Assembly (NCBI RefSeq): GCF_963921235.1
Contig: NC_086097.1
Location: forward strand, 91,948,001 to 92,012,000
Direction: 5' to 3'
Length of the DNA: 64,000 nucleotides
Source of the DNA: Mobula hypostoma
Taxonomy: Eukaryota
Shown piece after piece: positions 1,271-52,426 of the stretch (positions within the stretch are counted from its first letter, which is position 1; each line of letters begins with the position of its first letter). Under the pieces are notes generated by a model, which saw only the letters and a program-made list of their open reading frames with translations, was not told the origin of the DNA and did not search any database. Both the position numbers and the translations under genes were made by a program.

Positions 1271-2122
1271 TTTTCTCTACCTTGAAGGAACAGTCGCACA
1301 ATTTTCAAATTAGCTAAATACAGAAGGAGAAACAAGAAGATCCAAAAGAAAAGGAAAGTAAGTTTAATAGAATGGTGGGGAGGATGGTGAAAGTGGTTAC
1401 TGTGGTACTGTTAAGTTATTATGTTATATTTTATATTTCCCCTTGAACAACTCTGAGTACGGCTCTGAGAAGCCCAGTATCTCAGATTTCGCATTAAAGA
1501 AAGCAGCAGAGATGTCATGTCCCTCAGTAAAAAAAAATGTAATTAATGATAAGGATTAAAACTGTTACCAGTTTAAAGAAAACAGTTGTCAGAGCTGACT
1601 TCATAGTCAGGGAGATGGGCACCTGTCTCCGTAATCATCAATATTAGTCTTACATAGTGTATTGCTTCCCTAGTGCCAGATAAAAGACATAACGTGCTGC
1701 AAAAAAAAACTAAAAAGGGGAGCAATCTAATGTCTTCAAGGTACATTGAGACATAGCAAACTTAATCCAAAGAGGTTAAAGGTTTATTTGAAAGTTGATT
1801 ACAAGCTGAGCGTTAAGCCTTTGGTCCAAACTGGATGTCCATGTACTGTAATTGCAGCATTGTTTGAGAAGCAGGTACTGCACACAATTTTACTGTCCAA
1901 TACAATGTAATATAATAACCAGTACAGACACAGAGAAAGCAATTTGTTCCATATGTAAAAATTGCACCCTGCTTCCATTTTTAAAGCAAAAGTGAAATAC
2001 AGATAATTTGTTCATTCACACGATGAACAATGAGCAAAAATGCTAAGGTAATGTTGATTTTTAGATTCTCCCTGATCGTTTTACAGTGTTTAGTGTTCAG
2101 TAGTAGGATGGTGCTGGTAATA

Positions 2123-2280
2123 TACAGTCAGTGGCCACTTTATTAGGTATGCCTGTACACCTGCTCACTAATGCAAATATCTAATAATTTAGCAGCGAGT
2201 CAATGCATAAAAGCATGTAGATGTGGTCAAAAATTGATGTTCAGACCAAACATCAGAATGGGGAAGAAATGGGAAAGTCC
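2123..2280. mobile_element. Tc1-like non-autonomous DNA transposon fragment
   Basis: TA + cagtcagtggccactttattaggta terminus; a similar terminus recurs at ~2960. Confidence 0.4.
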
Positions 2281-3164
2281 CTAACCATGGACGTTTTACT
2301 CTCCTCCCATCCGGTAGGTGCTACAGAAGCCTCCGCTCCCGCACCAGCAGGCACAGGAAGAGCTTCTTCCCTGAGGCTGTGACCCTGCTGAACCTCACAT
2401 CACAGCGTTAAGCAGTACTGCACCCATATTGTGCTGTCTCAGTACTTTTATATTTGTGTGCTGTAGCACTTACTTTTTATTCACAGTTATTTTGTAAATA
2501 ACACTACACCAGCTAAAACCACCCAAAAGACTGAATCTTTAGAACTGTGAAGTTAGTTATGAACTATTATTGTGAAAGAATGTTTATCTGGAATGTAGGT
2601 TATGAAAGGGAAATTGAATGTTCTGTACATTTACAGTTTATGTTGCATTAATCTAAAATGGGAGGAGGTGTAACGTATGGATCTATTTCTTTCAGAGCAA
2701 TGACACCTCCCCCCTTAGCATTACCTGTTGATCGGTTGTCTACACATGAGCTTTGTTCTCTCTCCCACACTGCAATGAGAATACACCAGTTAAAACCAAC
2801 TCCCACATGCATGCTTGTATTTAATTGATATGTAGTTGTGCACAGACACAACACAAATAACCATGTGTTATAACAGTAGTGCGTAGAAGAGCATCTCTGA
2901 ATGCACAACTCGCTAAACCTTGAATTGGACGGTCTACAGCAGCAGGAAACATAAACATACATTCAATGGCCACTTTATTAGGTGCAGGAGGTTTTGTGGT
3001 CAACTCACAAAACTTCGAGACACACATCTTCCGAGGGAATATCACTGCAATCTACAGCTTGTAATTTCCCTTTGAGAAACATACTTTTCAGCCATCTAAA
3101 CGAACGAGAGATTTTACAATCTGCTAAAGGGCTCTTGGTGAACTTGACGCTCAGGAATGCAGGT

Positions 3165-3940
3165 ACAGCACCCTGAAGATGGACTGGACCATGTTCAAGC
3201 ACTCATCAGAGGACCTGAATGAACACGCCTCATTGGTCATGACTTTATAAAGACAGCCGTGGATGAGTGTATCCCCACAAAATCACTCTGAGCCTTCCCC
3301 AGTCAGACACCCTGGACAAACCAGGAGACCCGCAATCTGCCGAGGGCTTGGTTACTGGTGTTCAGGAATGGTGACCCAGGAAAGTACAATAAGTGCAGGT
3401 ATGGCCTCCAGAAAGCCACTTCATATACAAAAGTGGCAATTTCAGAACAGACTTGGATCAACAGCTGTAGCAGGGGTTGAGTGCCATCACCTCCTACAAA
3501 GCAAAACCAAGCAACATAAATGATAACAAGGTTTCTCTCCCAGATGAGCTCAATACCTTTTAAGCTCAGATTGACAGAATATGTAGGCATCTTCACGAAC
3601 TCTCACAGACCCCAATAACCCTGTGATTTCAGTCTCTGAAGCCAATGTGAGAGCATCCTTCAGGAAGGTAAACCCAGAAAAACTTTTGGCCCAAACGGTG
3701 TACCTAGCCAAGTACTGAAATCTGTGCTAATCAACCAGCTGAAACGTTCACTGAGATCTTCAACTCTCGCTTTGGCAGTCTGATGCATCCACCTGCTTCA
3801 GACAGGCTTCAATCATACTGGTGCCTATGAAGAACATGGTACCCTGCCCCAATGACTATCATCCAGTAGCATTTACATCCACTGTGATTAAGTACTTTGA
3901 GAGGCTGATCGTGAAGCTTATCAACTCCTGCCTGGGGAGT
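3165..3940 (+). mobile_element. Rex1/Babar LINE ORF2 fragment (pre-RT and RT start), degraded
   Basis: Broken translation DWTMFKHSSEDLNEH...IILVPMKNMVPCPNDYHPVAFTSTVIKYFERLI. Confidence 0.75.
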
Positions 3941-4499
3941 GACTTATGATGATGAAGATGATGATGATGATGGCTGGTTCTTCCGCAGCAGTCTCGGCAA
4001 AGCATCTATTATGCCCTTCAGCATGAAATTCCTGTAATAGGTTGAAAGTCATGTTAGACTAGAAGCACTGTCTAACATTGCATCCTGAATAGGTTATACT
4101 GTTTTGGATCTAAATTGGTTTACAGTGACTTATGATCTATTAACAGAAAAAAAGGCCTACCAAGAAAAATTTATGGAGCTTCTTGATTGCAACCATGTGC
4201 ATCTTTTTTCAATTTTTGAAAAGATTTGTATGCTGTTTTGTAATGATTGTAATGAAAATTATAGGCTTCTCTTTCACAGGAATGGAACCCATTGTCTGTA
4301 TTGATGATCAAGTACTGCTGACAATCTTTGTCAATGTTCAGTCATTTGTAAGCATGGGAGAGGTACAATTTTGTGGAGACCTATAATTGTGCTAACTTTG
4401 GATGCTAATCTTACAAAGTGTGTACCAGATATAGTTGTGCCTTTGTAATCTCTTTACCATGACATTATTATAGCCACCATTGGTGTTAACCATTCAATA

Positions 4500-5420
4500 T
4501 TTTCCAACTCTCAACTTGGCTGCTATATAGGATTAGTCTGTACATGTAGTAAACCAGCTTTGTATCTAGTCTTATGCAAATATGTGCATTGTATCTGCTA
4601 GTGCCTTTGAATAAATCGAAATACTGTATATTTTCAAAAATATATCAAGCTTCCACTTTAAAGCTCAATGCTATTTTTCCAGTCTAGTTTCAGTTCCAGC
4701 CATTCATTCCCCATTAAAGTTGATCTATTTTCACAATTTGCTATTCTTGTCGTTAGCTGTACTTGCCTGTTGCACAGCACCATACACCCCATTTGCACAA
4801 ATATCTATGAGTAGAACCACACTAGAACAGCTTTTCATTTTGATGGGGCTTTCTGGTATCTGGGTGAACCTGTCAAAGTAAATGTTTTGACTTACTACCA
4901 AAAAGCCTGTGGCAGCATCAATTTTCATGTCATTGCATTGGTTGCCAGTCAACAAGTTTTCTCTAAAATCTGTTAGAATTACTGCTTGCGACATTGATAT
5001 TCAGACCCTTCTCCTGGTCTGAAGTAAATACCGTTGAGGAACTTCCTTATACTGCAGTTACTTAGAATTGTCACTGAGATTTGTTTTGTTGCTGTTCTTA
5101 AGCTTGGTTGTGCAGGCTGACGAGTACTAAATCTTTCTTTTAGCAACTGAATGTGAATAATGATGTGTGACATTTTAACAATTAGCCGGTCTTCACAACA
5201 TATACTGCAACCAGTACTGAGGTCTTTGACTTTGCTACAGCAATTGTGGACTGCACTGCGTCATCTTCTTGTGGAGGACGACATTCTCTCGGCCTTTCTA
5301 GCTCTGGCCATTGGCACGACAATTTTATCTGTGCTTGAATGTCAGATTTTGCATACTCAACAGCTTACATTGAATTTGTTTATCCATGCATGCGAATCTA
5401 CCAGTCCACATGCAAATCTA
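4500..5420 (-). mobile_element. Ancient Gypsy gag-protease remnant
   Basis: Minus-strand MKIDAATGFLVVSQNIYFDRF resembles the retropepsin (I/L)DTGA motif; downstream TLMGNEWLELKLDWKNSI parallels GDWLRQLQLDWRSI of the Gypsy at ~50.3 kb. Confidence 0.55.
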
Positions 5421-5823
5421 TCTCATAAGGTACCAAAATTATAATGAAAGGGGAAGTTCTATAATGAACCAATAACTCACTTGTCTCATCTCATTCTGCT
5501 TCAGGTTCTTTATCCCAAAAGTATAACCTTCACCTACTTGTGACACCTCTGGGAAAAAATGTGAGCTAGTTGCTGAACAAAATATTTAAATATGACAACT
5601 TTCACCTCACATTGGTGAGAAGATTATCAGTGTATCATATTACTTTGGAGGTCTCAGGATGTCTTCTCCTTCAGCCTCTGAGATATTATTTGCTTTAAAG
5701 AACATGTTCATACATTTGATATATGATAAATTTAGTTGTACATGCTTACACTCCAAATATAAACAATCAGAGTCACCATAATTGTCCAACTTTAATTCAT
5801 CATTGGCATAGCTAAATCAGTGA

Positions 5824-6320
5824 GTTCAAAGATAAGTCAAAATTTAAAGTAAATTTATTATCAAAGTACATATCTGTCACCATATACAACCCTGAGATTT
5901 ATTTTCCTGTGGGCATACTCAATAAATCCATAATAGAAAAATAACCATGATAGAATCAATGAAAGACTGCACTAAATTGGCCGCTCAACCAGTGTGCAAT
6001 ATACAACAGACAGTACAACTTTTTTAAAGGAATATTAATAATAAACAAATAAACAATAATTATCAAGAACATTTGATGAACAGTCCTTGAAAGTGAGTTT
6101 ATTGGTTGTGGGGACATTTCGGTGATGAGGCAAGTGAAATTAAGTGAAGTTATCCCTTTTGTTCAATGGTTGAGAGACCTGAACCTGGTGGTGTGAGTCC
6201 TGAGGCTTCGGTACTTTCTTCCTGATGGCAGCTGTGAAAAGAGAGCATGTCCTGGGTAGTGGGGGTCTCTGATGATAGAGAGCATGACCTGGGTGGTAGG
6301 GGTTCCTGATATGAGCTGCA
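5824..6320 (-). mobile_element. Rex1/Babar-type LINE 3' end
   Basis: aaagtaaatttattatcaaagtacat terminus shared with ~53970; HPGHAL...TRFR-like C-terminal residues. Confidence 0.55.
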
Positions 6321-6329
6321 CAGCCTGTT

Positions 6330-7180
6330 ACGATTGAGGCTAATGCTACGAGAAGACTGTTAAGTAAATAATGGCTACATGGTCTTTGAAAACTACTTGA
6401 TAAATGGATGGTTAACAAATTGAGGTTGAGGCCAATGAAATGAAGGGTTCAGAAGTAACTTGAAAGGCAGAAAAGTGGAGTGGTAAGTGATTGTTTTCGG
6501 AATGAAGAATGGTAAGTAATGGTGTTCCCTGAGGTCAGTGGGACCATGCTTTTTTGATATATATTAGTGACTTAAAGATGACTGCACAAGGAAAAAATGA
6601 TGAGACAAAGCTTAGAAATGTGTTACTTAGCAAGAAGGATAAAAATAGATTCTAAGAAGACAGAGGTAGATTGGCAGCATGGGCAGTCAAGTGCAGATAA
6701 AACTTAATACAGAGACATGAGAAGTTTTACAGCTTGACAGGTAGATTAAGAGGATGATGTGGATCAAATGGCAAAGTTCTAAAAGATTTGTGGGAACAGA
6801 GGGATTGCATTGCACATGTGCGTTAAACCTTTTGGCAGTGTGTGAAGATTGTAGAAAAGGTCTGGAAAAATTGGAGGGGTTTCAGCTCCAACATGAGCCT
6901 GGAGAGGTGATGGTTTATCTTGTGAATCAAAGAAGGGTAAGAGAGGAATTGACAATAGTATACAGATCATGACTGGTTTATTTAATATAAATTGAAGGGC
7001 ACTACTGGCACTACTAGGCAAATTAAAGCTGTGAGGTGAATATTTAGAATTGTAGGGAAAAGGTCTGAAGGGAGATGAGGAAAATCTATTCTTTACAGAG
7101 AAAGCAGAAGGAGATTGGCACTCATTAAACTGTTCTACTGGGAACCCGTAAAGTTTGAATAGGCCAAGTGGTCTCCTTCA
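6330..7180 (+). mobile_element. Old, highly degraded CR1 RT fragment
   Basis: Remnants of GVP.GSV.G..LF.IYISDL and a CR1-like 3' end. Confidence 0.5.
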
Positions 7181-7189
7181 GTGTCTTAT

Positions 7190-9423
7190 ACTATAAGATC
7201 ATTAGACCATAAGGAATAGAAGCAGAATTAGGCCATTTGGCCCATTGAGTCTGCTCCACCATTTCATCATGGCTGATCCAATTTTCCTCTCAGCCCCAAT
7301 CTCCTCCTTTCTCCCGGTATCCCTTCATGCCCTGACCAATCAAGAATCTATCAACCTCTGCCTAAAATATATGGGAAGACTGGGCCTTCACGGCTGCCTG
7401 TGGCAAAGAATTCCACAGATTCACCACCCTCTGGCTAACTCCATTCTAAAAGGACACCCCTCTTGTCTGGGACTGTGTCCTCTGCTCTTAGACTCTCCCA
7501 CCATAGAAACATCCTCTCCACATCCACTCTATCAAGGCCTTTCACCATTCGATAGGTTTTGATGAGGTTACCCCTCATTCTTCTGAATTCAAGTGAATAC
7601 AGGCTCAGAGCCATCAGATGCTCTTCACATGACAAGCCATTCAATCCTGGAATCATTGTTGTGAAACTCCCTTGAACCCTCTTCAGTTTCAGCGCTTCCT
7701 TTCTGAGATAAGGGGCCCAAACTTGTTCACAGTACTCCAAGTGAGGCCTCACCAGTGCTTTATAAAATCTCAACATTACATCTTTGCTTTTATATTCTAG
7801 TCCTCTTGAAAGGAATGCTAACATCACATTTACCTTCCTCACCAAGACTCAGCCTGCAAATTAACCTTTAGGGAATCCTGCACGAGGACTCCCAAGTCCC
7901 TCTGTATCTCTGTTTTATGTATTTTCTCTCCAATTAGAAAACAGTTAACCCTTTCATTTCTTCTACCAAAGTGCATGATCATACTCTTCCCAGCACTCTA
8001 TTCCATCTGCCATTTCTTTGGCCATTCTCCTAATCTGTCTGTCCTTCTGTAGCCTCTGTACTTCTTCAAAACTACCTGCCCCTCCATGTATCTTCATATT
8101 GTCTGCAAACCCTGCAACAAAGCCATCAATTCCATCATCTGTCATTGACATATAACGTAAAAAGAATTGGTCCCAACAAACTAGTCACTGGCAACCAGTC
8201 AGGAAAGGCTCCCTTCATTCCCACTCTTTGCCTCCTGCCAATCAGCCACTGCTTTATCCATGCTAGAATCTTTCCTGTAATACCATGGGCTCGTGTGTAG
8301 CACCTTGTCAAAGAACTGAAAATTGAAGTACACAACATCAACTGATTCTCCCTTGTCTATCCTGCTTAGTACTTATTTTAAAAATTCCAACAGATTTGTC
8401 AGGCAAGATTTTCCTTTGAGGAAACCACGCTGACTATGGTTTATTTTATCATATGGCTCCAAGTACCCTGAGAATTCATCCTTAATAACTTCAACATCTT
8501 CCTGAGGTCAGACTAACTGGCTTATTGTTTCCTTTCTTCTGTCTTCTTGAAGAGTGGAGTCACATTTGCAATTTTTCAGTCTTCTGGAACCATTCCAGAA
8601 TCTAGTGATTCTTGAAAGATCATTATTATTGCCTCCATGATCTCTTCAGCTACCTCTTTCAGAACTCTGGGGTGTACAATATCTGATCCAGGTGACTTAT
8701 CTACCTTCAGACCTTTCATTTTCCCAAGAACCTTCTCTCTAGTTATGGTAACTTCACACATTTCATGCCCCCTGACACCTGGAACTTCCAAAAATACTGC
8801 TAGTGTCTTCCACAGTGAAGAACGATGCAAACTACTTCTTCCGTTCATCCGCTATTTCATTGTACTTCATTACTACCTCTCTAGCATCGTTTTCTAGCAG
8901 TCCGATATCCACTCTCACCTCTCTTTTACACTTTATGTATCTAAAGAAACTTCTGGTATCCTCTTTAATATTATTGACTAGCTTACTTTTGTATTCCATC
9001 TTTACCTTCTTAATGACTTTCTAGTTGCCTTCTGTTGGTTTTTAAAATCCTCCCAATCCTCTAACTTCCCACTAATCTTTTTCTCTCTTTGGGTTTTATG
9101 TTGACTTTGGTCTCTCTTGTTATCCATGGTTGTGTCATCTTTCCTTTAGAATACTTTTTCCTCTTTGGGATGTATATATCCTGTGCCTTCCAAACTGCTT
9201 TCAGAAATTCCAGCTGTTGCTGCTCTGCCATCATACCTGCCAGTGTTCTTTTCCAATCAGTTCTGACCAATTCCTCTTTCATGCCTCTGTAATTCCCTTT
9301 ACTCCACCGTAATACTGATACAACTGACTTTAGCTTCTCCTTCTCAAACATCAGGGCGGCTTCAATCATATTATGATCATTTTCCCTTAAGGGTTCTTTT
9401 ACCTTAAGCTCTCTTATCATTTC
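7190..9423 (-). mobile_element. CR1 LINE, 5'-truncated ORF2 (RT) with 3' tail
   Basis: Minus ORFs with KVDKSPGSDIVHPRVLKE, FVAGFADNMKI and YKALVRPHLEYC; short-repeat tail at ~7190-7213. Confidence 0.95.
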
Positions 9424-9899
9424 TGTGAATTCATATGCATATTTTAATTTACTAGAAACCCAATTGATGGTACAGTATTTTAGTAAATGTACAGATTATG
9501 AGAATGGATAGTAAGCTGGGTATTCTCTACAGAATTTGAATTAGAGTGTAGTCCCTTACTTACAAAGGAGTACTGGTTGAATGAAATTTAAAGATGATTC
9601 ATATTTCATAGCAGTGTGTAGAAATCTAAAGTGAATATAGCAGCATAGTGGTTAAGAAAAGAAAGTTGCTCACTGTTGTAATACTTATTGTTTTTTAATA
9701 AATATGTTCTCCGCATACGAAGTCTCGGTGTCCTTGTATTGATAAGTATAGAAGGATAGAGGTTTGCCCTCACATAAGTGCTGAAGTGTGTAATGCATCC
9801 ACTTCTAAAGTTCTGAAGTTCACTTAAGATGTGTTTCAGAGAATTTAAAAAATATTAGCCAGCCTTTTTCTTATATAGACAATTCACAGATCAAATCTT

Positions 9900-10450
9900 C
9901 AAAGACAAAATACTGGGGATGTTGGAAATCTGAACTGCAGGTGGAAAATATTCCAAATATTGGTAGTGTTTGTGGAGTGTTAACCTTTCAGTGAGTGATC
10001 CTTCATCAGAAATGGCAAGAGGTGGAGATTTAAATACAGAGAAAGGAAGGAAAAAGAGAAGGAAAAGGTCCCTGATAATGCAAAAGGGATTAAATGACAA
10101 AGATGGTGATAGTGAAAATTAACGGAAATCAAGATCAAGTGCAATTGCAAATAACTACCTGAAAATACTGGAGTGATGAACTAAAATTCCAGAAACTTTG
10201 ATTACTTGGAATTGATTAACTCCTTATTGAATCTAGGAGGCTCTAATATGTCCAGTCAGAAGGTGAGGTGTTATCCTCAAACTACCTTCAGCTTTATTAG
10301 GAGAAGTGTTAGAATCCAAAGACCAAGAGGTGAGAATATGAACGGGACAGAGAGGCAAGGTGACAGGCAACTGGAAACTCAGTGCCTAGCTTTCAGTCTG
10401 AACAGGGGTGCTCTGCAAATCCCTAACTGAATCTGCATTTAGCTTATGGA
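9900..10450 (-). mobile_element. Old Penelope-like element fragment
   Basis: Degenerate terminal motif (ISDEGSLTER on minus) with layout similar to the younger Penelope copies. Confidence 0.4.
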
Positions 10451-12077
10451 TGAGATCATTTATTGAGTAAAAAATGCTATCTGCTAAACTTCAGAAGGGG
10501 GTAAAAGGAAATATATTCTTTCATGAGAAATGGAGATTAAAGAGAGAACCAGTGTCCCAATAGATTTGATGGATGGGTGGGTGTTTGTAAGTGCCAAAGA
10601 TTAGTCTGCTGGTGACAGTACATTGAAAGTATCAGAAATTACTAAGGATAATAGTTGAATGAGGTAAAAAAAGTGAAAGAACAACAGGAAATTTCTCCTG
10701 GTTCTGGGGATGGAGAAGGTGAGACCAGAAGCATATATAATGAAATGAATCAACCTCATCAAATTTTCTATTGTTGTTGCCGCTGAACATTGTGGGCATG
10801 CTATGTTGGCGCCAGAATGAGTGGCATCACGTGCAGGCTGCCCCCGGCACATCCTTGGGTGTATTGATTTTTAACGCAAATGGCACATTTCGCTGTATGG
10901 TTTGATGTATCTGTGATAAATAAATCTGAAATAACGAGTAGGTAATAGAATAACCTCCTCTGTACTGTCTATTAAGTAGTTGTCCTCGATCATCTTCATT
11001 CCATTGTGAAAACCAGACATCACCTTTGTACTGTATCATCTACTAAAATCACTTTTGTTATCCTTGCTGGATAGGTATCCTGCTGGGGATGAAGATGCTG
11101 CCTGATATCTGCTGGATCCTGTGTTATGTCGGCCCAGTTAACAGCTGATCAACTATATGTCATTTGCTCTATACAGCAAGAACACTGTGGTTACTAATTT
11201 GCTTAAATTTATAACTAACTAGCTAAAGAATCATTCTAAAAAAGTGATATTGAAAACAATAAATCAAAAATGATACTTAAGAGGTTTAGTGTCTCTAACT
11301 GACTACTGTTCAAAACAGGGGCACAAATGCCTAATTGTTTACCATTTTATCATTCTGACAAAGGCTCTCAAATCTAGAACATTAACTCTGTTTCACTTTC
11401 CTCAGATGTCATCTGACCTGCTGAATGTTTCCAGTGTTTTCTGCTATTCTAGGTTTCCAGCATTTACCATTTTTGGTGTGCTAAACAGGTAGTGTGTGTA
11501 ATGCTGGGGCCCAAACAGGTGAGATCCAAACCTGCAAAAAATTAGGTAATTTGAGAGAAAAAAAATCTAGTACCAAAACCACCAGGGTAGCTTTTACCCA
11601 GCATACAGCAATAAAACATTTCCAGTGTGATTGCCAGTGTCAGTTACTTGCTAAGCTTGTAGTTGCTATGTCATTGCCGTGAACGACTACAGGCAAGTGA
11701 GTCGGATCTTAAAAAACTCTCACCATGGGAGTCACAAAACAAAAGCATAACTTGCTGCCATGGAGATGAGAGAAAATGGAAAGAGAGGATGAGAGAAAAT
11801 GAAACTTGGTTTTCTCCTATGTTGGGAAACCACACCCTCACCCAACCTTTAAAATGATCGCATTTAGTACAAATCTAGCATGCAACATACAGGTATATGC
11901 AATTTTTAGGCAATAGGGTATTTCATTACCAAGTAGGCACTGGTTAGCTGGTTAGTTGGTTGGCATCCATCAGTCCCGAAGGACAATGGGTGATGATTAT
12001 CACTATCACAAGCCTGGGTGGAAGGTATGGAGATCATGAGATGCCTTCTGGGCCACAGGAAAGCTTATGAAGCAATA

Positions 12078-15006
12078 CCATAAGACCAAACGACAGAGGA
12101 GCAGAATTAGGCCATCTGTCCCATCGAGTCTGCTCCACCATTCAATCATGGCTGATCCATTTTTTTTATCTCCCCCTGAACCCCAGTTCTTCGTCATCTC
12201 CCTATAACCTTTGATGCCATAACCAATCAAGAACCTATCAATCTCTGCCTTAAATACACCCAGTGACTTGGCCTCCACAGCTGCATGTGGCAATAAATTC
12301 CACAAGTTCACCACCCTTTGGCTAAAGAAATTTCTCTGCATCTCTGTTTTGAAAGGGCACCCCTCTATCCTGAGGCTGTGCCCTCTTGTACTAGACTCTG
12401 CCACCATTGAAAAACATCCTTTCTACATTTTCTCTGACTAGGCCTTTCAACATTTGAAATGTTTCAATGAGATGCCCCCTCATCCTTCTGAATTCCAGGG
12501 AGTACAGTCCCAGAGCCACCAAACATTCCTTGTATGATAACCCTTTCGTTCCTGGAATCATCTGTGTGAACCTCCTCTGGACCTCTCCAATGCCAGCACA
12601 TCTCTTCAAAGATGAGGAGCCAAAAAACTGTTCACAATACTCAAGGTGAGGCCTCTCCAGTGCCTTATAAAGCCACATCCTTGCTCTTGTATTCAAGACC
12701 TCTTGAAACGAATACTAACATGACATTTGCCTTCCTCACCACTGACTTGACTTGCAAGTTAACCTTCAGGGTGTTCTGCACAAGGACTCCGAAGTACCTT
12801 TGTATCTCAGGTTTTTGGATTTTCTCCACATTTAGAAAATAGTCTGCACATTTATTTCTACTACCAAAGTGCATGACCATGCATTTTCCAGCATTGTATG
12901 TCATTTGCCACGTTCTTGTCCATTCTCCTAATCTGGGTCCTTCTGCAGCCTACCTGCCCCTCCACCAATCTTCGTATCATCTGCAAACTTGGCAACAAAG
13001 CCAACTATTCCATCATCTAAAGCTACGTCCACACTAGACTGGAAAATTTTGAAAACGCCAGTTTCGTGTAAAAACGATAGGCGTCCACACCAGGCATTTT
13101 TGAAAATACCTCCATCCACATTAAAACGGGCACTTGGGTGAATCTCCTCCTACTGGGCATGAGCAGGACACATCTACAGAAAACAAGCGAAGAGGAAATG
13201 GTATACTTGGTGCGCATTTGTCCAGTTACAGACTAAAAAAACTTAAAAGGAAATTGCCAAACGACGGACAGCAGTTGGCTCTCGCGCAGGAGGACTTAAA
13301 ACTAAAAAAAAAATACTGGAGCGTACGGAAGCAAACGACAGGGGGATCACAGACAGTATGACCCGGCTGACGACGAACATTAAAAAACTGACTAACTCTA
13401 TTGCAGAGGGATTTGTAATGATGAGGAATATGATGGCTCCCCCCCCGTACTTTTCACCACCACAATACCAGCATCACAGCCACTACAATAGCTACACATA
13501 CGGACACACGGACCCCTGGGTGGTCCCACTCCCACAGAGGGGTCACCCTGGAAACATTTCCTACAGCCATAGTCTCTTCACCGATGAAAGGGACGACAGG
13601 TTTTTTAAAACCTCCGGTAGCCCTGTACACACTACAATGCCCAACCGACGCTTTCAGATTTAAACACTCTGGAGATCGTTTTAGAAGAGCTCTGTTCTTC
13701 AGGAGGAAAACGCCATTTCAGTGTGGACGGAGGGCCAAAACAAAGGAAGAAAGCTTCGGTTACAGATTTATCTGGTCTAGTGTGGACGTAGCCTAAATCA
13801 TTTATATATAGCATAAAAAGAAGCGGTCCCAACAACGCCCCCTACAGAACACCACTAGTCACTGGCAGTCAACCAGAAAAAGGATCCTTTTATTCCCATT
13901 CACTGCCTCCTACCAATCAGCCAATGCACTGACCATGTTAGTAACTTTCCTGTAATACCATGGTCTCTTAACATGGTAAGCAGCCTCGTGTGGCACCTAG
14001 TCAAAGGCCTTCTGAAAGTCCAAATATACAACATCGACTACATACCCTTTATCTATCCTACTTGTAATCTCCTCAAAGAATTCCACCAGGTTCGTCAGGC
14101 AGGATTTTCCCTGAAGGAAACCACGTTGACTTTATACTATCTTGTCCTGTGTCACCAAGTACTCCATCACCTCATCCTTAACAATTGACTAACATCTTCC
14201 CAACCACTGAGGTCAGGCTAACTGGTCTATAATTTCTTTTATGCTGCCTTCCTCCTTTCTTAAAGAGTGGAGTGACATTTGTAAAGTTCCAGCCCTCTGG
14301 CACCATGCCAGAGTCCAATGATTTTTGAAAGATAATTTCTAATGCCACCACAATCTTTAATGCTACCTCTTTCAGAACCCTAGGGTGCAGTTCATCTGGT
14401 CCAGGTGACTTATGTACCTTTAGGTCTCTCAGCTTTTTGAGCACCTTCTCTCTTGTAATAGTAACTGCACCCACTTTTCTTCCTTCACCCACTACAACAT
14501 CAGGCATACTGCTAGTGTCTTGCACAGTGAAGACTGACGCAAAATACTCATTTAGTTCATCAGCCATCTCCTTGTCCCCCATTATTATTTCTCCTGCCTC
14601 ATTTTCTAGCCTATATCCACTCTCATTGCTCTTTTATTTTTAACATACTTGAAAATACTTTTACTATCCACTTTAATATTATTTGCTAGCTTGCTTTCAT
14701 ATTTCATCTTTTCCCTTCTAATGATTTTTTTAGTTGCTCTCTGTAGATTTTTAAAAACTTCTCAATCCTCTATCTTCCCACTGATTTTTGCTTTGTTGTA
14801 TGCCCTTTCTTTTGTTTTTACATTAACTTTGACTTCCCTTGTCAGCCATGGTTCTACTACTTTACCATTTGAGTATGTCTTCATTTTTGGAATACACATG
14901 TCCTGCACCTTCCTCATGTTTCCCAGAAACACACACCATTGCTGCTCTGCTGACATCCCCGCCAGCAGCTCCTTCCGATTTACTTTGGTTAACTCCTCGC
15001 TCATAT
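12078..15006 (-). mobile_element. CR1 LINE, 5'-truncated ORF2, interrupted by a Harbinger element
   Basis: ORFs KSPGPDELHPRVLKE, NYRPVSLTSVVGK, AKFADDTKIGG and HLEYC; closely similar inverted copy at 24670-26858. Confidence 0.95.
13021..13793 (+). mobile_element. PIF/Harbinger non-autonomous DNA transposon with a probable Myb/SANT-ORF C-terminal remnant
   Basis: TIR (a/g)gctacgtccacactagac at both ends; 3-bp TAA TSD at 13018-13020 and 13794-13796; empty site ccatcatctaaatcattta visible (inverted) in the CR1 copy near 25880. Confidence 0.9.
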
Positions 15007-22429: not shown

Positions 22430-25400
22430 CATTACGTCGGGTTGATCACCGTTGACAGTATGTGTTCTCAAGCTTCTGTACCTTCTCTCTGGGAACGGCC
22501 TATCAGCGGCGTCAACAGAGATTTAGCAAGAGGGATTTCTCGCAGGTCGGCGGCATTTGTCCATTGTACGTGGCCTATCAGCAGCGTCAACAGAGCTCTA
22601 CGAACGAAATAAAAGTACAGAAGGGACAAGCGGAGCAGCCATTGTTGGGAGTAGGCCAGTGGTGAAAGTGGAAGCGACAGGCTCTGGCTCAAACCAGGCT
22701 TCAGCTCAGAGAAGGCGTCGGCTCTGTGTAAAGCGTCTGTTAAGGTTTCCTTTTAGATTTTTTCCCCCTCTTACTGTGCCATTTAAATAGCTGTGGTGTG
22801 CTCTTTGTGCCGGATGTTGGAGAACTGGGAGACCCAGAGTCTACCAGAGAGCATCCGGCTGCAGTTCCTTGAGGACCCTGTTAGGGATCTGCAACAGCAG
22901 CTGGATGACCTTGGGCTTGTACGGGACCGCAGGGATATAATTGATCAAAGTTACAGGGAAGTAGTCAGCCCGAAGCTGCAGGAGGCGAGTAGCTGGGTGA
23001 TTGTCAGGAGAAATGGAAATAGGCAGTTAGAGCAGAGCATCTCTGTGGCCATTCTCCTCAAAAAACAAGTATACCACTTTGGATATTTTTGTGGGGGATG
23101 ACCTCCCGGGTGAATGCCACGGTGACCGGGTTACAGGCACCGAGCCTGGGTCCGTGGTGCAGATGGGAAAGAGAGAGAAGAATGGAGCGGTAGTGATAGG
23201 GACTTGGCAACACTCACAACACACTGGAGGAACTCAGCAGGTCGGGCAGCATCCGTGGAAATGATCAGTCAACGTTTCAGCAGGAGTATTTTGTGTTAGT
23301 GATAGGGACTCGATAGTGAGGGGAAAAGACAGGAGATTCTGTGGACATGAATGGGACACCTGGATGGTATGTTACCTCCCAGGTGCCAGGGTCAGGGAGG
23401 TCTCAGATCGTGTCCACAATATTTTGGAGGTGGGGGGGAACAGCCAGGTGTCTTGGTACATATTGGTACCAATGACTTAGGAAGGAAAAGCAATGAGGAC
23501 CCGTAAAGAGAATTTAGAGAGCTAGGTAGAAAGCTGAGAAACAGGACCACCCGGAGCTGCCTGTGCCATGTGCCAGTTAGGGTAGAAACAGAATGATTTG
23601 GCAGATAAATGCGTGGCTGAGAAGCTGGTGCAGGGGGCAGGGCTTCAGGTTCTCGGATAGTTGGGATCTATTCTGGGGGAGGTATGACCTGTTCAAAAGT
23701 GACGGGTTGCAGCTGAACCTGAGGGGGACCAATATTCGTATGGGCCGGTTTGTTAGGGCTGTTGGGGAGGGTTTAAACTAATTTGGCAGGGGGGTGGGAA
23801 CGAAAAAGAAAGGATTCAGGATAGGACAGATGGTAAAAAATAAAGATAGCTTGCAGTCAGATTGTCAGGAAAGGCAGGCAGGTGATGGGACTTAATTGCA
23901 CCCAACAGGCTGAGTATTAAATCATTAGGGATGCAGAGTCAGAAAGCATAGCAAATACGGTACTCAAAGTGTTGTATCTAAATGCACGTAGTATAAGAAA
24001 TAAGGTAGATGATCTTGTTGCAATATTACAGATTACCAGGTATGATGTTGTGGCCATCACTGAATCGTTGCTGAAGGATGGTTGTAGTTGGGAGCTGAAC
24101 GTCCAAGGTTACGCGTTATATCAGAGGGATAGGAAGGTAGGCAGAGGGGCTGGTGTGGCTCTACTGGTAAAGAAGGGCATCAAATCAGTAGAAAGATGTG
24201 ACATAGGTTTGGAAGATGTTGAATCCTTGTGGCTTCAGTTAAGAAACTACAAGGGTAAAAGGATATTGATGGCAGTCATATACAGGCCTCCCAGCAGTGG
24301 CTGGGAGGTGGACCACAGGTTACAACAGGAAATAGAAAAGGTGAGTCAAAAGGGCAATGTTACGGTAGTTATGGGAGATTTAACATGCAGGTCGATTGGG
24401 AAAATCAAATTGGTAATCGATCTCAAGAGAGTGAGTTTGTTGAATGCCTAAGAGATAACTTTTTAGAGCAGTTTGGCATTGAGCCTACTAGGGGATCAAC
24501 TATATTGGATTGGGTGTTACGCAATGAACCAGAGGCAATTAGGGAGCTTAAGGTAAAAGAACACTTAGGAACCAGTGATCACAATATGATTATGTTCAAC
24601 TTGAAATTTGATAGGGAGAAAGTAAAGTCTGACGTAGCAGTATTTCAGTGGAGTAACGGAAATTACAGTGGTGTGAGAGAGGAGTTGGCCAAAGTAAATA
24701 GGAAGGAGCTCCTGGCAGGGACATCAGCAGAGCAGCAATGGTGTGTGTTTCTGAGAAAAATGAGGAAGGTGTAGGACATGCGTATTCCAAAAATGAATAA
24801 ATATTCAAATGGTAAAACAGTACAACCGTGGCTGACAAGGGAAGTCAAAGCTATTGTAAAAGCAAAAGAAAGGGCATATAACAAAGCAAAAATTCGTGGG
24901 AAGATAGAGGATCAGGAATTTTTAAAAACCTATAGAGAGCAACTAAAAATTCATTACAAAGGAAAAGATGAAATATGAAAGCAAGCTAGCAAATGATATC
25001 AAAGTGAAAGTAAAATTTTTTTCAAGTATGTTGAAAATAAAAGAGAAATGAGAGTGGATATAGGACTGCTAGAAAATGAGCCAGGAGAAATAATAACGGG
25101 GGACAAGGAGATGGCTGATGAACTAAATGAGTATTTTGTGTCAGCCTTCACTGTGGAAGACACTAGCAGTATGCCTGATGTTGTAGTGTGTGAAGGAAGA
25201 GAAGTGGGTGCAGTTACTATTACAAGAGAGAAGGTGCTCAAAAAGCTGAGAGACCTAAAGGTACATAAGTCACCTGGACCAGATGAACTGCACCCCAGGG
25301 TTCCAAAAAAGGTAGCGTTAGAGATCGTGATGGCATTAGAAATGATCTTTTAAAAATCATTGGACTCTGGCATAGTGCCAGAGGACTGGAAAATTGCAAA

Positions 25401-26858
25401 TGTTACTCCATTCTTTAAGAAAGGAGGAAGGCAACAGAAAGGAAATTATAGACCAGTTAGCCTGATCTCAGTGGTTGGGAAGATGTTAGAGTCAATTGTT
25501 AAGGATGAGGTGATGGAGACTTGATGATACAGGACAAGATAGTACAAAGTCAGCATGGTTTCCTTCAGAGAAAAACCTGCCTGGCGAACCTGGTGGAATT
25601 CTTTGAGGGGATTACAAGTAGGATAGATAAAGGGAATACAGTGGGTGTTGCATATTTGGACTTTCAGAAGGTCTTTGACAAGGTGCCACACATGAGGCTG
25701 CTTACCAAGTTAAGAGCCCACGGTATTACAGAAAAGTTACTAACATGGTTAGAACATTGGCTGATTGGTAGGAGGTAGCAAGTGTGAATAAAAGGGTCCT
25801 TTTCTGGTTGACTGCCAGTGACTAGTGGTGTTCTGTAGGGGTTGGTGTTGGGACCACTTCTTCTTATGCTATCTATAAATGATTTAGATGATGGAATAGA
25901 TGGCTTTGTTTCCAAGTTTGCAGATGACACAAAGATTGGTGGAAGGACAGTTAGTGCTGAGGAAACAGGTAAGATGCAGAAGGACTTAGACAGATTAGGA
26001 GAATGGGCAAGAAAGTGACAAATGAAATAAAATGTTGGAAAATGCATGGTCATGCACTTTGGTAGTTGAAATAAATGTGCGGACTATTTTCTAAACTGGG
26101 AGAAAATCCAAAAATCTGAGATACAAAAGTACTTCAGAGTCCTTGTACAGAACACACTAAAGGTTAACTTGCAAGTCAACTCAATGGTGAGGAAGGCAAA
26201 TGTCATGTTAGCATTCATTTCAAGAGGTCTAGAATACAAGAGCAAGGATGTGATGCTGTGGCTTTATAAGGCACTGGAGAGGCCTCACCTTGAGTATTGT
26301 GAACAGTTTTGGGCTCCTCATCTTTGAAGAGATGTGCTGGCGTTGGAGAGGTCCAGAGGAGGTTCATAAGGATGATTCCAGGAATGGAAGGGTTATCATA
26401 CAAGGAATGTTTGATGGTTCTGTGTCTGTACTTGCTGGAATTCAGAAGGATGAGGGGGGATCTCATTGAAACCTTCTGAATGTTGAAATTCCTAGACAGA
26501 GTAGATGTGGAAAGGATATTTCCCATGGTGGGAGAGTCTAGGACAAGAGGGCACAGCCTCAGGATAGAGGGGTGTCCTTTCAAAAGAGAGATGCAGAGGA
26601 ATTTCTTCAGCCAAACGGTGGTGAATTTGTGGAATTTGTTGCCACATGCAGCTGTGGAGGCCAGGTCGTTGGGTGTATATAAGATAGAGATTGATAGGTT
26701 GTTGATTGGACATGGCAACAAAAGGTTGCGGGGAGAAGGCTGGGAACTGGGGTTGAGGAGGAGATAGAAAAAAAGGATCAGACATGATTGAATGGCGGAG
26801 CAGACTCGATGGGCCAGATGGTCTAATTCTGCTCCTGTGTCTTATGGTCTTATGGTCT
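22430..26858 (+). mobile_element. Near full-length but defective CR1 LINE (5' UTR, ORF1 with esterase, ORF2 APE + RT, tail)
   Basis: ORF1 VCSLCRM, VVIG/DSIVRG and HIGTNDLG (SGNH esterase); ORF2 LYLNARSIRNK, AVIYRPP, YLDFQKVFDKVPH and FADDTK; (cttatggt)n tail at ~26840-26858; many stops and frameshifts; 5' boundary uncertain. Confidence 0.95.
23205..23296 (-). mobile_element. 92-bp Penelope-terminus insertion in CR1 ORF1
   Basis: 14-bp TSD tagtgatagggact at 23191-23204 and 23297-23310. Confidence 0.8.
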
Positions 26859-47600: not shown

Positions 47601-48752
47601 CACCTAATTTGTAGCTCATAGAATTGAGAGATTGTGGGATGAATGTTCATGCTGTAAGAGAGAGCAGGGTTAATGGGCCCGTACTTGAACTGAAGGTGAA
47701 AAGACACTAATATTAAACCTAACAACCTGAGTTAGGGTCTCAACTATTGACTAGATCAGTGGTGCTCAACAGGGGCCATGCCAGATTTCATAGGGGCCAC
47801 AAGTTAAAAAACTGGAGTTTCTGAATGGGCCGTGATAAGTTTTACTATTTTAATGAAATATTGCTAAAATATCTAAATAAAAAAAAAATGAATATATGTA
47901 ACTTAATTGGATCCCTGAATGAAATGAATGGGAAAATATGCTAGATGATGCAAATGAGGCAGCAAAACAGCTTGACTATGTGCAAGTCACCATTCATTGG
48001 TGATGTGGAGGCCCCACTCCACATCCACCCCCAAATCACAAACTGCAGATTCCGACGGGGTTTTCTGCAGCAAGTCCAGTCAGCATGAGGCTGGTTCCAC
48101 CGACCCTCGTGTACTATAATATTTATAAAATGTGACGAGGAGGGTGCAGTTACTGCAGTGAGGTCACCTGTCACTAATGGCTAAACTGCAGAGCGGTGAG
48201 AACACGTGAAGGCTACCACTACGTCCCCATCTACCAGCACAACTTCCATTAAATCTCTGATACTTAACACATTTTGAAAGGAAGGTCAATTCACTTTTCT
48301 TGGTGAGAACACACTCGTTATTGCTACATAGAATTTGCATGTATAATAACACTTAAAAATATATGCCTGAAAAATTAAATTATTTAAAAAATACTCCCTG
48401 AAAAGCTAGTTTTATTTTTACATGTATATTCAATACTGAAACTAATACGTGAGATTATATTTATTATAATTTTTAGGCGTTTTCTAATTTTCTGTAGAAC
48501 CTACTCACACAATTTTGTTGGTACTGTGTGTACATGCGCGTACACACGCGCACACACAGAGATCAGGTCAGTGAGGAAATGCCTCTTGCTTAAGAGCTTA
48601 AGACAGATACTGAATGTGAAACTATTTTTGAAGAAGTCAAGAGCTATATCTTTGAAAGTAATATCCTGCTGGAAAATGTAATGGCTCGTGCAACTGATGG
48701 TGCTGTTTCCATGGTAGGAAGATGCATTGCTCATTTAAAAAATGCTGTGCCT

Positions 48753-48971
48753 TGTGTATTTAATATTTGAGTAGCATTTGAGTAATATTGTAAATATATT
48801 GTTTGATTAATTATTCTTGTTTGTTTAGTAATTCATTACATATGTGAACTGCATACATCATGATAAATACATGCCTTGTCTTAAGTAAAAACAAATGTAC
48901 ATGAGTTATGACCTGGCTCTGTTGTCTTCCTTTCAATTAGTTTTGTGTTTTGGTGTTACAAAGCATTAACA
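48753..48971 (+). repeat. 5' LTR of the Gypsy element
   Basis: Direct repeat of 51460-51698; ends in aaca, followed by the PBS. Confidence 0.88.
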
Positions 48972-50454
48972 GTGGTGATGAGTGAGGTTTAAATGAGTCC
49001 AAGATGACTTGAGGTGCAGTGAGATGTTCAAGTTAGAAAAAGTGTAGCAAGAAATGATCGAATTAAATAAAATCACAGCACTCTTTTTCTGATAACTGGC
49101 TCATGTATACTAAGTGAATTGAACAGTATTTTGAAGTAAATGGATTAGCCAATGAAAAGCGAGTTGGATTGGATTTAAAGGCACACTCTTTGCTTAGAAG
49201 TTTAACTTATAGAGTACATATAAAACTTATAAAGTATATACATGTCTTCACATACAACCCTGCCTGCAAGAAAATAAATCTCAGGGTTTTATATGTGACA
49301 TAGATGTATTTTGAAAATAAAATTACTTCGAAATTTGAACTTCCGACTGCTCTATTCAAATCTGCCGAAATGAGCTGTGCTGTTATGAAAATAATGCAGG
49401 AACATTTATAACTGAAATCATTGTTGATTGCAGAGTGCTTTGGGTTTTATAAGTGGAATCAAAAGGGAGTCCATTTTAGTTCAGATGGCTGAATTGAATA
49501 GATTGTCTGAACATTATCAGTTCAATGATAGGCTTAATGATGCACTGAGAAGTTTAGTTTGTGGAATCTTACAAGAAATCATGCAAAAATGGCTCCTAAC
49601 TGAAGTACAACTTATGTTTAAAAGAGCAGTTGAAATATCTATATCAATGAAAACAGCAGAGAGAGACACAACTGAATTGCAGTCAGGAATGGAAGTAAGC
49701 AAAAACAAAATTGCAATATCTAAACAGAAACTGATCTGGTCAAAAAAATTGTGTTACTGTTGTGGCAGGGGCTCACATACACCAGACCAATGCTGGTTTA
49801 AGGGCAAAACTTGCAGAAAGTGCAAGAAAGTAGGACACATAGAGAGATCATGTTGGGCAGACAAAAGTAAATGGATTGCATGGGGAAGAGTAAAAGATAA
49901 AAAGTCAAATTGTAGTTTCCTAAAGAGCACTATTCTGTATGCTGTTGATAAAAAAAATCTGATAATGATGAGAGTGACACAGGACTGGCTAGCCTTGAGC
50001 TTTACAGTGAGAAAATTAACAGTAGGCACCCCAATATGGCTTACACCAGGAGTGAATGGCAAATTAATTAAAATGTAATTGGACACTGGTTCGGCTGTTT
50101 CAGTCATTCCACAAAATGTGTTTGAATGGCATTTCAAAGACACTAAACTGAAGCCTGCAGATATTTGTTAAGAACTTACACTTTAGAAAATAACATTCCT
50201 GTGTGAGTGACAATTGTAACAATGAGATACACAACCAACAAGCCACATTGGGCTTGTATGTGGTAAAGACAGGAGGGGCAGCATTTTGGGGAGGTGATTG
50301 GCTGAGACAACTACAACTTGATTGGAGATCCATCAACTATTTGCATGTCACATTTCCTGTAATAGATTTAACTGAAAGTGGATTAAGAAAGATTGTTGCC
50401 ACAACTGTCTCCCTGCTGTACACCATGAACCATTGCCCAACATAGGGCAGATAC

Positions 50455-51125
50455 GTGTTGATGCCAACCTCTGTGACTCTGTTTGGAAAGCTTATTGGAC
50501 CAAGGAAGGACCATGCTACTCAGAGGAATCATGAAAGTGATCAAAGTAGTGGTCCAACTACAACATTTTTTGTGGGTAACATATCTGAGAAAGGTTCTGA
50601 TATATTAATCAGCAGTTACTTGCAAAACGTGGCTTGGTTTTAAGCTAGAAGCGAGTTTAAGGAGGTACAGGAAAGTTGAAAGCCTTTGGCTTTTGTGAGT
50701 ATAAAGATTCAGAACCTACGATGTGTGATTAAAGGTTATTGCGTGAACTTCAAGTGGAAGACAAAAAGTTGCTTGTAAAAACAGATGCAGAGACCAAAAC
50801 CCAGCTGGATGAATGGAAGGCCAAAAAGAATGGAGACACAAAAACACAGGATTCGTCAGATGATGTTGTGGATGAGGAAACCAAAAGGAGAGATCAGATC
50901 GAAAAGGGATCAATAGTAGGATTAATAAGAGAATGTTCTGGTGAACTGAATGCACCTTCCCAAAATAGAGATGCCATCCAAGAAAGAAGAAAAAGGAAAA
51001 GAAAGAGGAGGATGACATATGGAAATGGAAGAAGATAAATGAGACCTAATTTCTCGAGAAATTAGCAAATTCTGAGATAGAAGAAACAAAAAGGAGAGAA
51101 AGAAGCTGGGACTGAGAAAGAAGTA
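50455..51125 (+). pseudogene. RBM25: Processed, internal fragment of RNA-binding protein 25 mRNA (RRM and following charged region)
   Basis: Contiguous GPTTTFFVGNISEKGSDILI / QLLAKRGLVLS*KRV*GGTGKLKAFGFCEYK / KKLLVKTDAETKTQLDEWKAKK / DEETKRRDQ / LIRECSGELNAPSQ / EMEEDK*DLISREISKF*D matches vertebrate RBM25 as I recall it; no introns; several stops and frameshifts. Confidence 0.93.
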
Positions 51126-51459
51126 AGGATCAAGGTAGATCCCAGAGCTGTCAGAACCACTTCCTGCAGTCTCAGAGCCAACTCCTACAACCACCATGGA
51201 GGTGGCCCCAGAACCTGAGATTGTTTTCACAGGCACGATTCTTACCTGCCAAACGAATTGACCGACACCCCCACCCCTATCCTTTCAGATAAAACATTAT
51301 TTCCCAAGAGTAAGAAAACCTGCTTAGTGACTAAATCTTTTGGCCAGAATGGAACAATTTAAAATTTGCTATGCTGTGGATGTCTGTATATAGTAGTTGT
51401 ATAATATAGTTGAGATGCATTCTATATTGAGTTGAAGTTTATAGCTAAGGAGGGAGGAG

Positions 51460-51698
51460 TGTTGTGTATTTAATATTTCAGTAATATTGTAAATATATTG
51501 TTTGATCAAGCATCCTTGTTTATTTAAATAATTCATTACGAGTTAAATGTAAAAATAAGTGATTTGCATGCGTCATGACGCTACAATGTCATACGTGCAT
51601 GCCTCGCCTTAAGTAAAAATGAACATACACGAGTTACCTCCTGGCTCCCTTGTTTTCCTTTCAATTAGTTTTATGTTTTGGGGTTATAAAGCAACACA
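51460..51698 (+). repeat. 3' LTR of the Gypsy element
   Basis: tgttgtg...aacaca, preceded by a polypurine tract. Confidence 0.9.
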
Positions 51699-52426
51699 TG
51701 CCTGACATTTTTTTGCATATACTGTGTCATACATGTCAGTATTTGATTGTGTGACATCCATAATAAAGGCTGTCAACTTCATCAAATCAAATGCAGTTCA
51801 AGATCAATTGTTTTGACAACTTTGTGGAAAACGAAGAAGATTTTGAATAGCCACTATTGCATACAGAGGTCTGAAGCTTATCAAAAAGGAATTGTCTTTG
51901 TTGCTTTAATGTACTTTGGAATAGTAATGTAGCATTTCAAAGTTATTGTTGCCGCAAAGTCCAAGGTAGTAGATATCATTTAATCTTGTATCATGCAAAG
52001 AGGCTATTACCACTTTCCTTTGAAAACTCAAACTTTTCAGCCGCAATATTGAACATCATGAGTTTATGCAATTTCCTTCACTGGTCACTCTCAAATAGAA
52101 ATGCAAGATGATGATCTGATTGTGTATCTTGATCATTTGAAACAACTGCACATTGATGGAGAATTTCCATTCAGAGACCTGCTGGAGATGCATATTCCAG
52201 CTTGGGTGGTGGATCCATTTGGGGTGAATGTGAATGATGTTGACACCACATTGCAAGAATGTCTTATTGAGCTGCAGAGTGATACAACAGCTCAGCAAAA
52301 TTCAAATACAGCAAGTGAAATTTCTGGATAACTAGTGATAATCAAAATAAGTTTCCACAGATCTGGAAGAAAGCAAAGTTGTTCCTAATTGGATTTCCCA
52401 CCACATATCTAGTTGAATGTGGTTTT

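Follow-up and report, generated by a model that had tools for sequence, protein, structure and literature searches.

A Gypsy LTR retrotransposon family of a cartilaginous fish carries a spliced RBM25 mRNA segment in place of RT, RNase H and integrase

We identified, within the 64-kb stretch of DNA analysed here (the window), a Gypsy LTR element at positions 48753-51698, an old and decayed member of a multi-copy family that carries a spliced segment of RBM25. Its parts follow the order LTR, PBS, gag, protease, RBM25, pol tail, polypurine tract and 3' LTR inside one target-site duplication (TSD), TGCCT (Table 1). This structure had been proposed in a sequence-only reading and was confirmed here, the TSD being verified against empty sites. 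Very probably, pol was exchanged for RBM25 when reverse transcription switched templates twice, guided by microhomology, on a co-packaged mRNA, and the chimera then spread passively as a non-autonomous element. The sequence-only reading had likewise favored capture by template switching, which is supported by the spliced joins, the microhomologies and the shared 5' junction described below.

Table 1. Features of the RBM25-carrying Gypsy element in the window
Feature	Position	Strand	Basis
Left target-site duplication TGCCT	48748..48752	+	sequence; empty-site overlap of 5 nt in 7/11 flanking-repeat relatives
5' LTR	48753..48971	+	LTR-LTR alignment; start 3 nt shorter than that of the 3' LTR
PBS-like motif	48973..48982	+	directly after the 5' LTR; also in sister copies
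Decayed gag with zinc knuckles	49394..50040	+	tblastn to P0121 aa 1-222; zf-CCHC E 0.011, below cut-off
Decayed aspartic protease and linker to RT start	50041..50396	+	P0121 aa 223-339; RVP = P0121 aa 223-313
5' switch point, 7-nt microhomology TGCCACA (Gypsy/RBM25 exon 3)	50397..50403	+	codon phase equal in both; exact in 9/15 full-pol sisters
48-nt in-frame RBM25 exon	50407..50454	+	parent G000:C1:99832633-99832586 (-), AG/GT borders
Spliced RBM25 exons 4-8, entire RRM region included	50455..51083	+	parent exon match; RRM_1 on shark homologue P0001
RBM25 exon 9 remnant (Arg/Glu-rich)	51084..51147	+	shortened by later deletions; overlaps tail at CCAGAG
Gypsy pol 3' tail	51142..51330	+	position downstream of integrase in full sisters
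Polypurine tract	51447..51459	+	sequence; equal placement in sister copies
3' LTR	51460..51698	+	LTR-LTR alignment
Right target-site duplication TGCCT	51699..51703	+	sequence; empty sites

The two LTRs of the window element differ by a K2P distance of 0.19 over 210 sites. The element was inserted inside an older dispersed repeat (window 48560-48752 and 51699-52420), for which 104 candidates were found and 40 scored, and 11 uninterrupted relatives were fetched. The window TSD is real, because the flanks join with a short overlap in these empty-site relatives; besides the 5-nt cases in Table 1, the overlap was 4 nt in 1/11 and could not be placed in 3/11. Pfam gave no match for the flanking repeat, whose translation resembles, by its motifs, a hAT-type transposase. 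Elsewhere in the window, three decayed copies of a LINE-like repeat, 70-90% alike, were located at 7196-9417, 12077-15003 and 24538-26858, with an endonuclease-like reading frame at 23921-24771. ARAGORN detected no tRNA within the 64 kb, and no Gypsy match other than the element itself was present there.

The family is a Ty3/Gypsy LTR retrotransposon as assigned by its predicted domain order and by similarity to a full-length Gypsy polyprotein of sturgeon (P0121), in which knuckle, protease, RT, RNase H and integrase follow one another. The left interior of the window element matched residues 1-339 of this protein (E 5e-67). A protein match of the pol tail alone was not significant (E 0.48); in full-pol sisters this tail follows directly after integrase. 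Pfam reported nothing above cut-off on the broken pieces of the window element. Paired LTRs, a PBS, a polypurine tract and a short TSD, all features of Ty3/Gypsy elements, are present in the RBM25-carrying family. When the protease-RT linker was used as a query, 15/30 loci belonged to the same Gypsy family and ran on into RT. In all five sisters that share gag, tail and LTR, pol is collinear, and the interval between the two switch points contains RT, RNase H and integrase over 2.0-2.8 kb. By this comparison, the RBM25 cargo substitutes for the internal ORF and does not interrupt it, as the sequence-only reading had maintained.

RBM25 was recognized at the protein level in the open piece 50733-51029, which had 120 matches at E<=0.001, to RBM25 or to RRM or unnamed proteins, the best being a shark protein (81%). 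The cargo is 83-94% identical to the host's own RBM25 exons, which lie on the contig of the window (G000:C1, minus strand, approximately 99.79-99.84 Mb) and have AG/GT at all nine exon borders checked. The shark protein and these parent exons agree at 87-100%, in support of a cartilaginous fish as the host. A PWI-domain search for the parent yielded three other loci, none of which matched RBM25, and the gene was found via the C-terminal protein. Two LTRs of the RBM25-carrying family are situated near the parent (G000:C1, approximately 99.876-99.907 Mb), 36 and 66 kb upstream of its first coding exon and on the strand opposite to the gene.

Protein and parent-exon matches bore out the earlier identification of the cargo as RBM25, but its borders had been misplaced: they were given as 50455-51125 and are in fact 50397 to approximately 51147, the proposed start having missed the final 10 nt of exon 3 as well as the 48-nt exon. 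The window cargo comprises these two pieces, exons 4-8 and an exon 9 remnant, and long sister copies continue approximately 28 nt into exon 10 before joining pol. Across the family, the cargo thus spans the end of exon 3 to the start of exon 10 with every intron absent, so that approximately 29 kb of the parent, introns included, is collapsed to at most approximately 1.07 kb. Clean exon-exon joins, six in the window copy and eight in long copies, were demonstrated against the parent gene, as expected from the intron-less piece reported earlier. The frame of the window copy is indeed dead, being broken by six stops and several frameshifts, including both of the Arg-to-stop changes that had been named. 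Later deletions have cost this copy the exon-10 stub, lost between two copies of CCAGAG, and the greater part of exon 9, so that its 3' join is secondary.

The peptide of the 48-nt exon is identical to the shark protein at 14/14 residues, and the exon was present in 1/120 homologues. A pattern for the junction without this exon had no match in the genome, in a test that would miss small families. This is possibly an alternative exon of cartilaginous fishes that was fixed in the captured isoform. The shark "RBM25-like" protein (P0001, 220 aa) was considered as a copy of the element in shark and rejected: the 48-nt exon supplies its N-terminus, its ends correspond to intron-like sequence in the parent gene, and it is probably a partial gene model.

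Microhomology, which the sequence-only reading had pointed to as a mark to look for at the junctions, occurred at both switch points. The 7-nt run at the 5' point is accompanied at the 3' point by a 9-nt run, GAGAAGAAA, which is common to Gypsy and RBM25 and exact in 3/5 sisters whose pol runs into the tail. The chance of such runs at random switch points was 0.0006 (5') and 0.00007 (3'), the latter value being understated owing to the purine-rich composition of both sequences at that point. The 5' join is in frame, and 46 of the 91 scorable copies still are. The cargo does not have an intact RBM25 3' end, and neither a poly(A) nor a TSD of its own was found around it, in agreement with the earlier description of a doubly truncated piece. 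In one chimeric copy (L216:2746-3560, minus strand), RBM25 joins pol at a position approximately 200 nt upstream of where the 3' join usually lies, which suggests later switching or recombination with pol-bearing RNA; another locus (L026) has a tandem triplication of the 5' junction region.

The chimera is widely dispersed. Searched with the RBM25 segment, the genome yielded 2,824 first-look candidates, and the 40 that were scored all matched at 77-83%, apart from the self match; both sides of the 5' junction were present in 28/29 fetched loci. A 20-nt pattern across the chimeric junction had 208 exact matches in the genome (control, 0; non-chimeric version, 509), and 40/40 of the junction-pattern loci run on into RBM25. 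As the exact pattern occurred in only 4 of the 67 chimeric loci that were sampled independently (three being duplicates), we estimated approximately 3,500 chimeric copies (95% range 1,400-12,600), and the family likely has thousands of members. Both outer LTR ends could be placed in 17 of the 40 junction-pattern loci (two were shifted 2 nt by eye and one was dropped). A 5-nt TSD matching at 4/5 positions or more was found at 5/17 of these versus 2/272 cross pairs, and at 9/17 versus 26/272 when a 1-nt shift was allowed, each TSD being different; the other 8/17 had no clear TSD even with this shift. Judged from its dispersed copies of one structure, distinct TSDs and contemporary full-pol partners, the RBM25 chimera is a non-autonomous LTR family. 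The sequence-only reading had raised the possibility of such a family: the family itself was borne out by recurrence of the same junction with distinct TSDs, its scale had been under-called, and its mobilization in trans is something we likewise infer.

Cargo length varies among copies. A short form of 589-636 nt, without exon 8 and most of exon 9, accounted for 36/84 copies, longer forms of 687-1,069 nt for 42/84, and 6/84 were outside both ranges. In a sample not chosen for RBM25 (the first 30 of 491 matches to a tail pattern), seven loci carried RBM25, 17 had pol running into the tail and six were a cargo-free deletion form; a similarity-based tail sample had RBM25 in 16/29. The cargo-free family, which belongs to the same Gypsy (L219, L220, L221, L226, L238 and L241), rejoins the identical purine-rich tail site from the zinc-finger region of integrase, and this site is likely a switch-back hotspot. 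The same pol deletion without RBM25, which had been named as a case against the capture, was looked for with a pattern that would miss small families and had no match.

Additional Gypsy relics were observed outside this family. In a different Gypsy family, SUDS3 follows immediately on protease (L259:3270-3827, minus strand, and L264:3173-4330, plus strand), and in L259 a single open frame extends from protease into Sds3 (Pfam E 7e-6). L260 and L262 are Gypsy gag-protease relics without RT that also belong to families other than the RBM25 carrier. The idea that one promiscuous family produced all four was rejected, as they had no DNA match to the LTR or internal region of the RBM25 family.

Copies of the RBM25 family are old and decayed. 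Divergence between paired LTRs had a median of 0.25 (range 0.17-0.50; 15 pairs including the window, two of them with a poorly placed inner end). A tree of the 430 nt of gag-protease before the junction, built from 36 of 78 chimeric copies taken at random and 15 pol copies, was star-like, with equal end branches (median 0.11) and with chimeric and pol copies intermixed, consistent with one old burst in which full-pol helpers would be of equal age. Chimeric copies formed no single clade (10 label changes versus a shuffled mean of 13.1), and 1/48 inner branches was well supported; since the tree does not unite the chimeras, the case for a single origin comes from the junction and the alleles that they share. 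Among 129 loci, 112 distinct copies differed from parent RBM25 by a median of 13% and had a median of 3 frameshifting indels. Over 91 copies, the mean number of non-CpG changes per copy was 12.4 for synonymous changes, 34.8 for non-synonymous ones and 2.1 for stops, which is close to the site ratio, and decay after insertion was therefore neutral.

Differences from the parent that are family-wide show another pattern. At a frequency of 0.75 or more, 19 were synonymous and one was non-synonymous, the latter being the shark residue, and the spreading element would have carried an essentially unchanged RBM25 peptide with the residues of its own lineage. Synonymous differences at 45% or more numbered 22, or 18 without CpG-forming columns, modestly above the 12.4 expected for one lineage; this unpolarized excess is no proof of selection. 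Non-synonymous changes at the level of subsets were L56P, Y57N and G66D. No conserved copy stood out among 150 scored of 5,555 protein-search candidates (the best near-full-length copy had 80% amino-acid identity), and a conserved open frame, purifying selection or a fixed locus, the features of a functional retrogene or domesticated chimera, was not found among those scored. All copies examined are dead, and they provided no evidence of a host function.

We also checked the occurrence of the window copy in other organisms, and part of its words was present in 20 of 24 listed runs (organisms A-H), four of which (organisms B, D, E and G) were examined in detail. The left edge between element and flank was bridged by contigs from D and G (9 other letters in approximately 200), the right edge by contigs from E (37 in 390) and B (1 in 149), and the 5' chimeric junction by contigs from D (9 in 198) and E (8 in 204). 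These contigs are far closer to the window copy than its paralogues are, and summed depth over the RBM25 part was hundreds of times that of single bridging contigs. Because the same edges and junction are bridged in four other organisms, both the window insertion and the family are older than the split of five organisms or more.

In the scenario that we prefer, a spliced RBM25 mRNA would have been co-packaged into a Gypsy particle. While synthesizing the minus strand, RT would have exited the element RNA at the 9-nt match, which is purine-rich, copied RBM25 from exon 10 to exon 3 and re-entered the element RNA at the 7-nt match, as the anatomy and the model in PMC5131818 suggest. A chimera that retained LTRs, PBS, gag, protease and polypurine tract could then have been packaged and copied by the enzymes of full sisters, with RT and integrase acting in trans, and nested deletions in the purine-rich 3' part may have followed this single capture. 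RBM25 is best viewed as a passenger whose presence was not needed for success, because the cargo-free deletion form spread about as well (6/30 versus 7/30). A purely passive and immediate burst does not fully explain the family-wide synonymous excess, and a Gag-protease-RBM25 frame might instead have been selected while the element was active, either because the RRM peptide was helpful or because an unbroken frame stabilized or packaged the RNA. The in-frame 5' join, kept by about half of scorable copies, the near absence of family-wide amino-acid change and a junction-to-tail length that is a multiple of 3 in 42/84 copies, short and long forms alike, point in this direction, as does the SUDS3 capture with its similar single frame in a different Gypsy family. 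However, the synonymous differences are those that a conserved parent would also gather, and the surplus above 12.4 is weak (Poisson P 0.047 for 19 or more, and weaker for 18). Arg/Glu repeats delete in threes without selection, and the copies are not independent events. Moreover, the short form lacks exon 8 and the bulk of exon 9 and reads its final codons in a different frame, the subset-level replacements exist, and the cargo-free deletion family is about equally common. We consider such selection quite unlikely.

A route through DNA, in which a LINE-made RBM25 processed pseudogene was inserted into, or recombined with, an already deleted Gypsy element and the hybrid was then amplified, would draw on the LINE relics that are abundant in the window and on the deleted Gypsy forms (6/30) that rejoin the identical tail site. 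These cargo-free forms, however, begin their deletion in integrase and not at the 5' switch point, and no empty-deletion match was found. The absence of poly(A) and of an own TSD, a 3' end inside exon 10 and microhomology at both ends also argue against this route, which is extremely improbable and already largely refuted.

A broader possibility, likewise unlikely, is that several Gypsy families in this lineage of cartilaginous fishes repeatedly exchanged RT-RNase H-integrase for in-frame host mRNA after protease, with the frame selected during spread. Like transducing retroviruses, these elements would have produced fusions, here a Gag-protease-RBM25 RRM polyprotein, and such events would explain the odd top retrocopy parents that have been reported in cartilaginous fishes and are now attributed to LINEs.

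Tan et al. (2016, PMC5131818) described LTR-mediated retrocopies of animals with all the defining features, among them re-mobilization and a preferred site for switching back. The RBM25 chimera resembles the retrocopies reported there in the partial replacement of element ORFs by a doubly truncated, spliced mRNA in sense orientation between both LTRs, in microsimilarity at the switch points (median 6 bp there versus 7 and 9 nt here), in the absence of poly(A) and inner TSD, and in re-mobilization and a preferred switch-back site. In contrast to the cases in that account, the RBM25 family is old and common to several species; its copies, of which there are at least 208 and likely thousands, fall into nested deletion subfamilies. 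A HERV-K capture of FAM8A1 (cited in PMC5131818) also involved a vertebrate LTR element, a captured mRNA and junction microsimilarity, but is given as a single pseudogene locus and is retroviral, not Gypsy. Maize Bs1 (PMC13317346) is similarly an LTR element in which segments of host genes take the place of normal coding parts; as described, it joins pieces of three genes in a transcribed and translated chimeric gene, whereas the RBM25 family has one gene and its examined copies are all decayed. Retroduplicated NLRs of pepper (PMC5664825) likewise represent host coding sequence amplified in mostly non-autonomous LTR elements, with enzymes in trans, as we infer here. The reported numbers are 86-123 NLRs per genome under purifying selection, in contrast to one fragment, an order of magnitude more copies and neutral decay in the present case. 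The mechanism, including re-mobilization, is therefore already published, and the scale is the unusual part. A literature search found no paper on an RBM25-carrying Gypsy family, and RBM25 does not occur in the main text of two 2026 vertebrate retrocopy preprints, whose supplementary tables may list it. A 2026 preprint ties retrocopy abundance to non-LTR elements and names SUDS3 among the top parents in cartilaginous fishes.

Published animal cases of LTR-mediated gene capture are low-copy, and the family described here is such a capture amplified to likely thousands of copies in a vertebrate. It offers a large and dated sample in which a single capture and the deletions that followed can be studied, and it preserves an old RBM25 isoform with the 48-nt exon. 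Its many shared insertions are usable as phylogenetic markers. In addition, LTR families can inflate the number of retrocopies counted in cartilaginous fishes, as with SUDS3, which is found here inside a Gypsy element.
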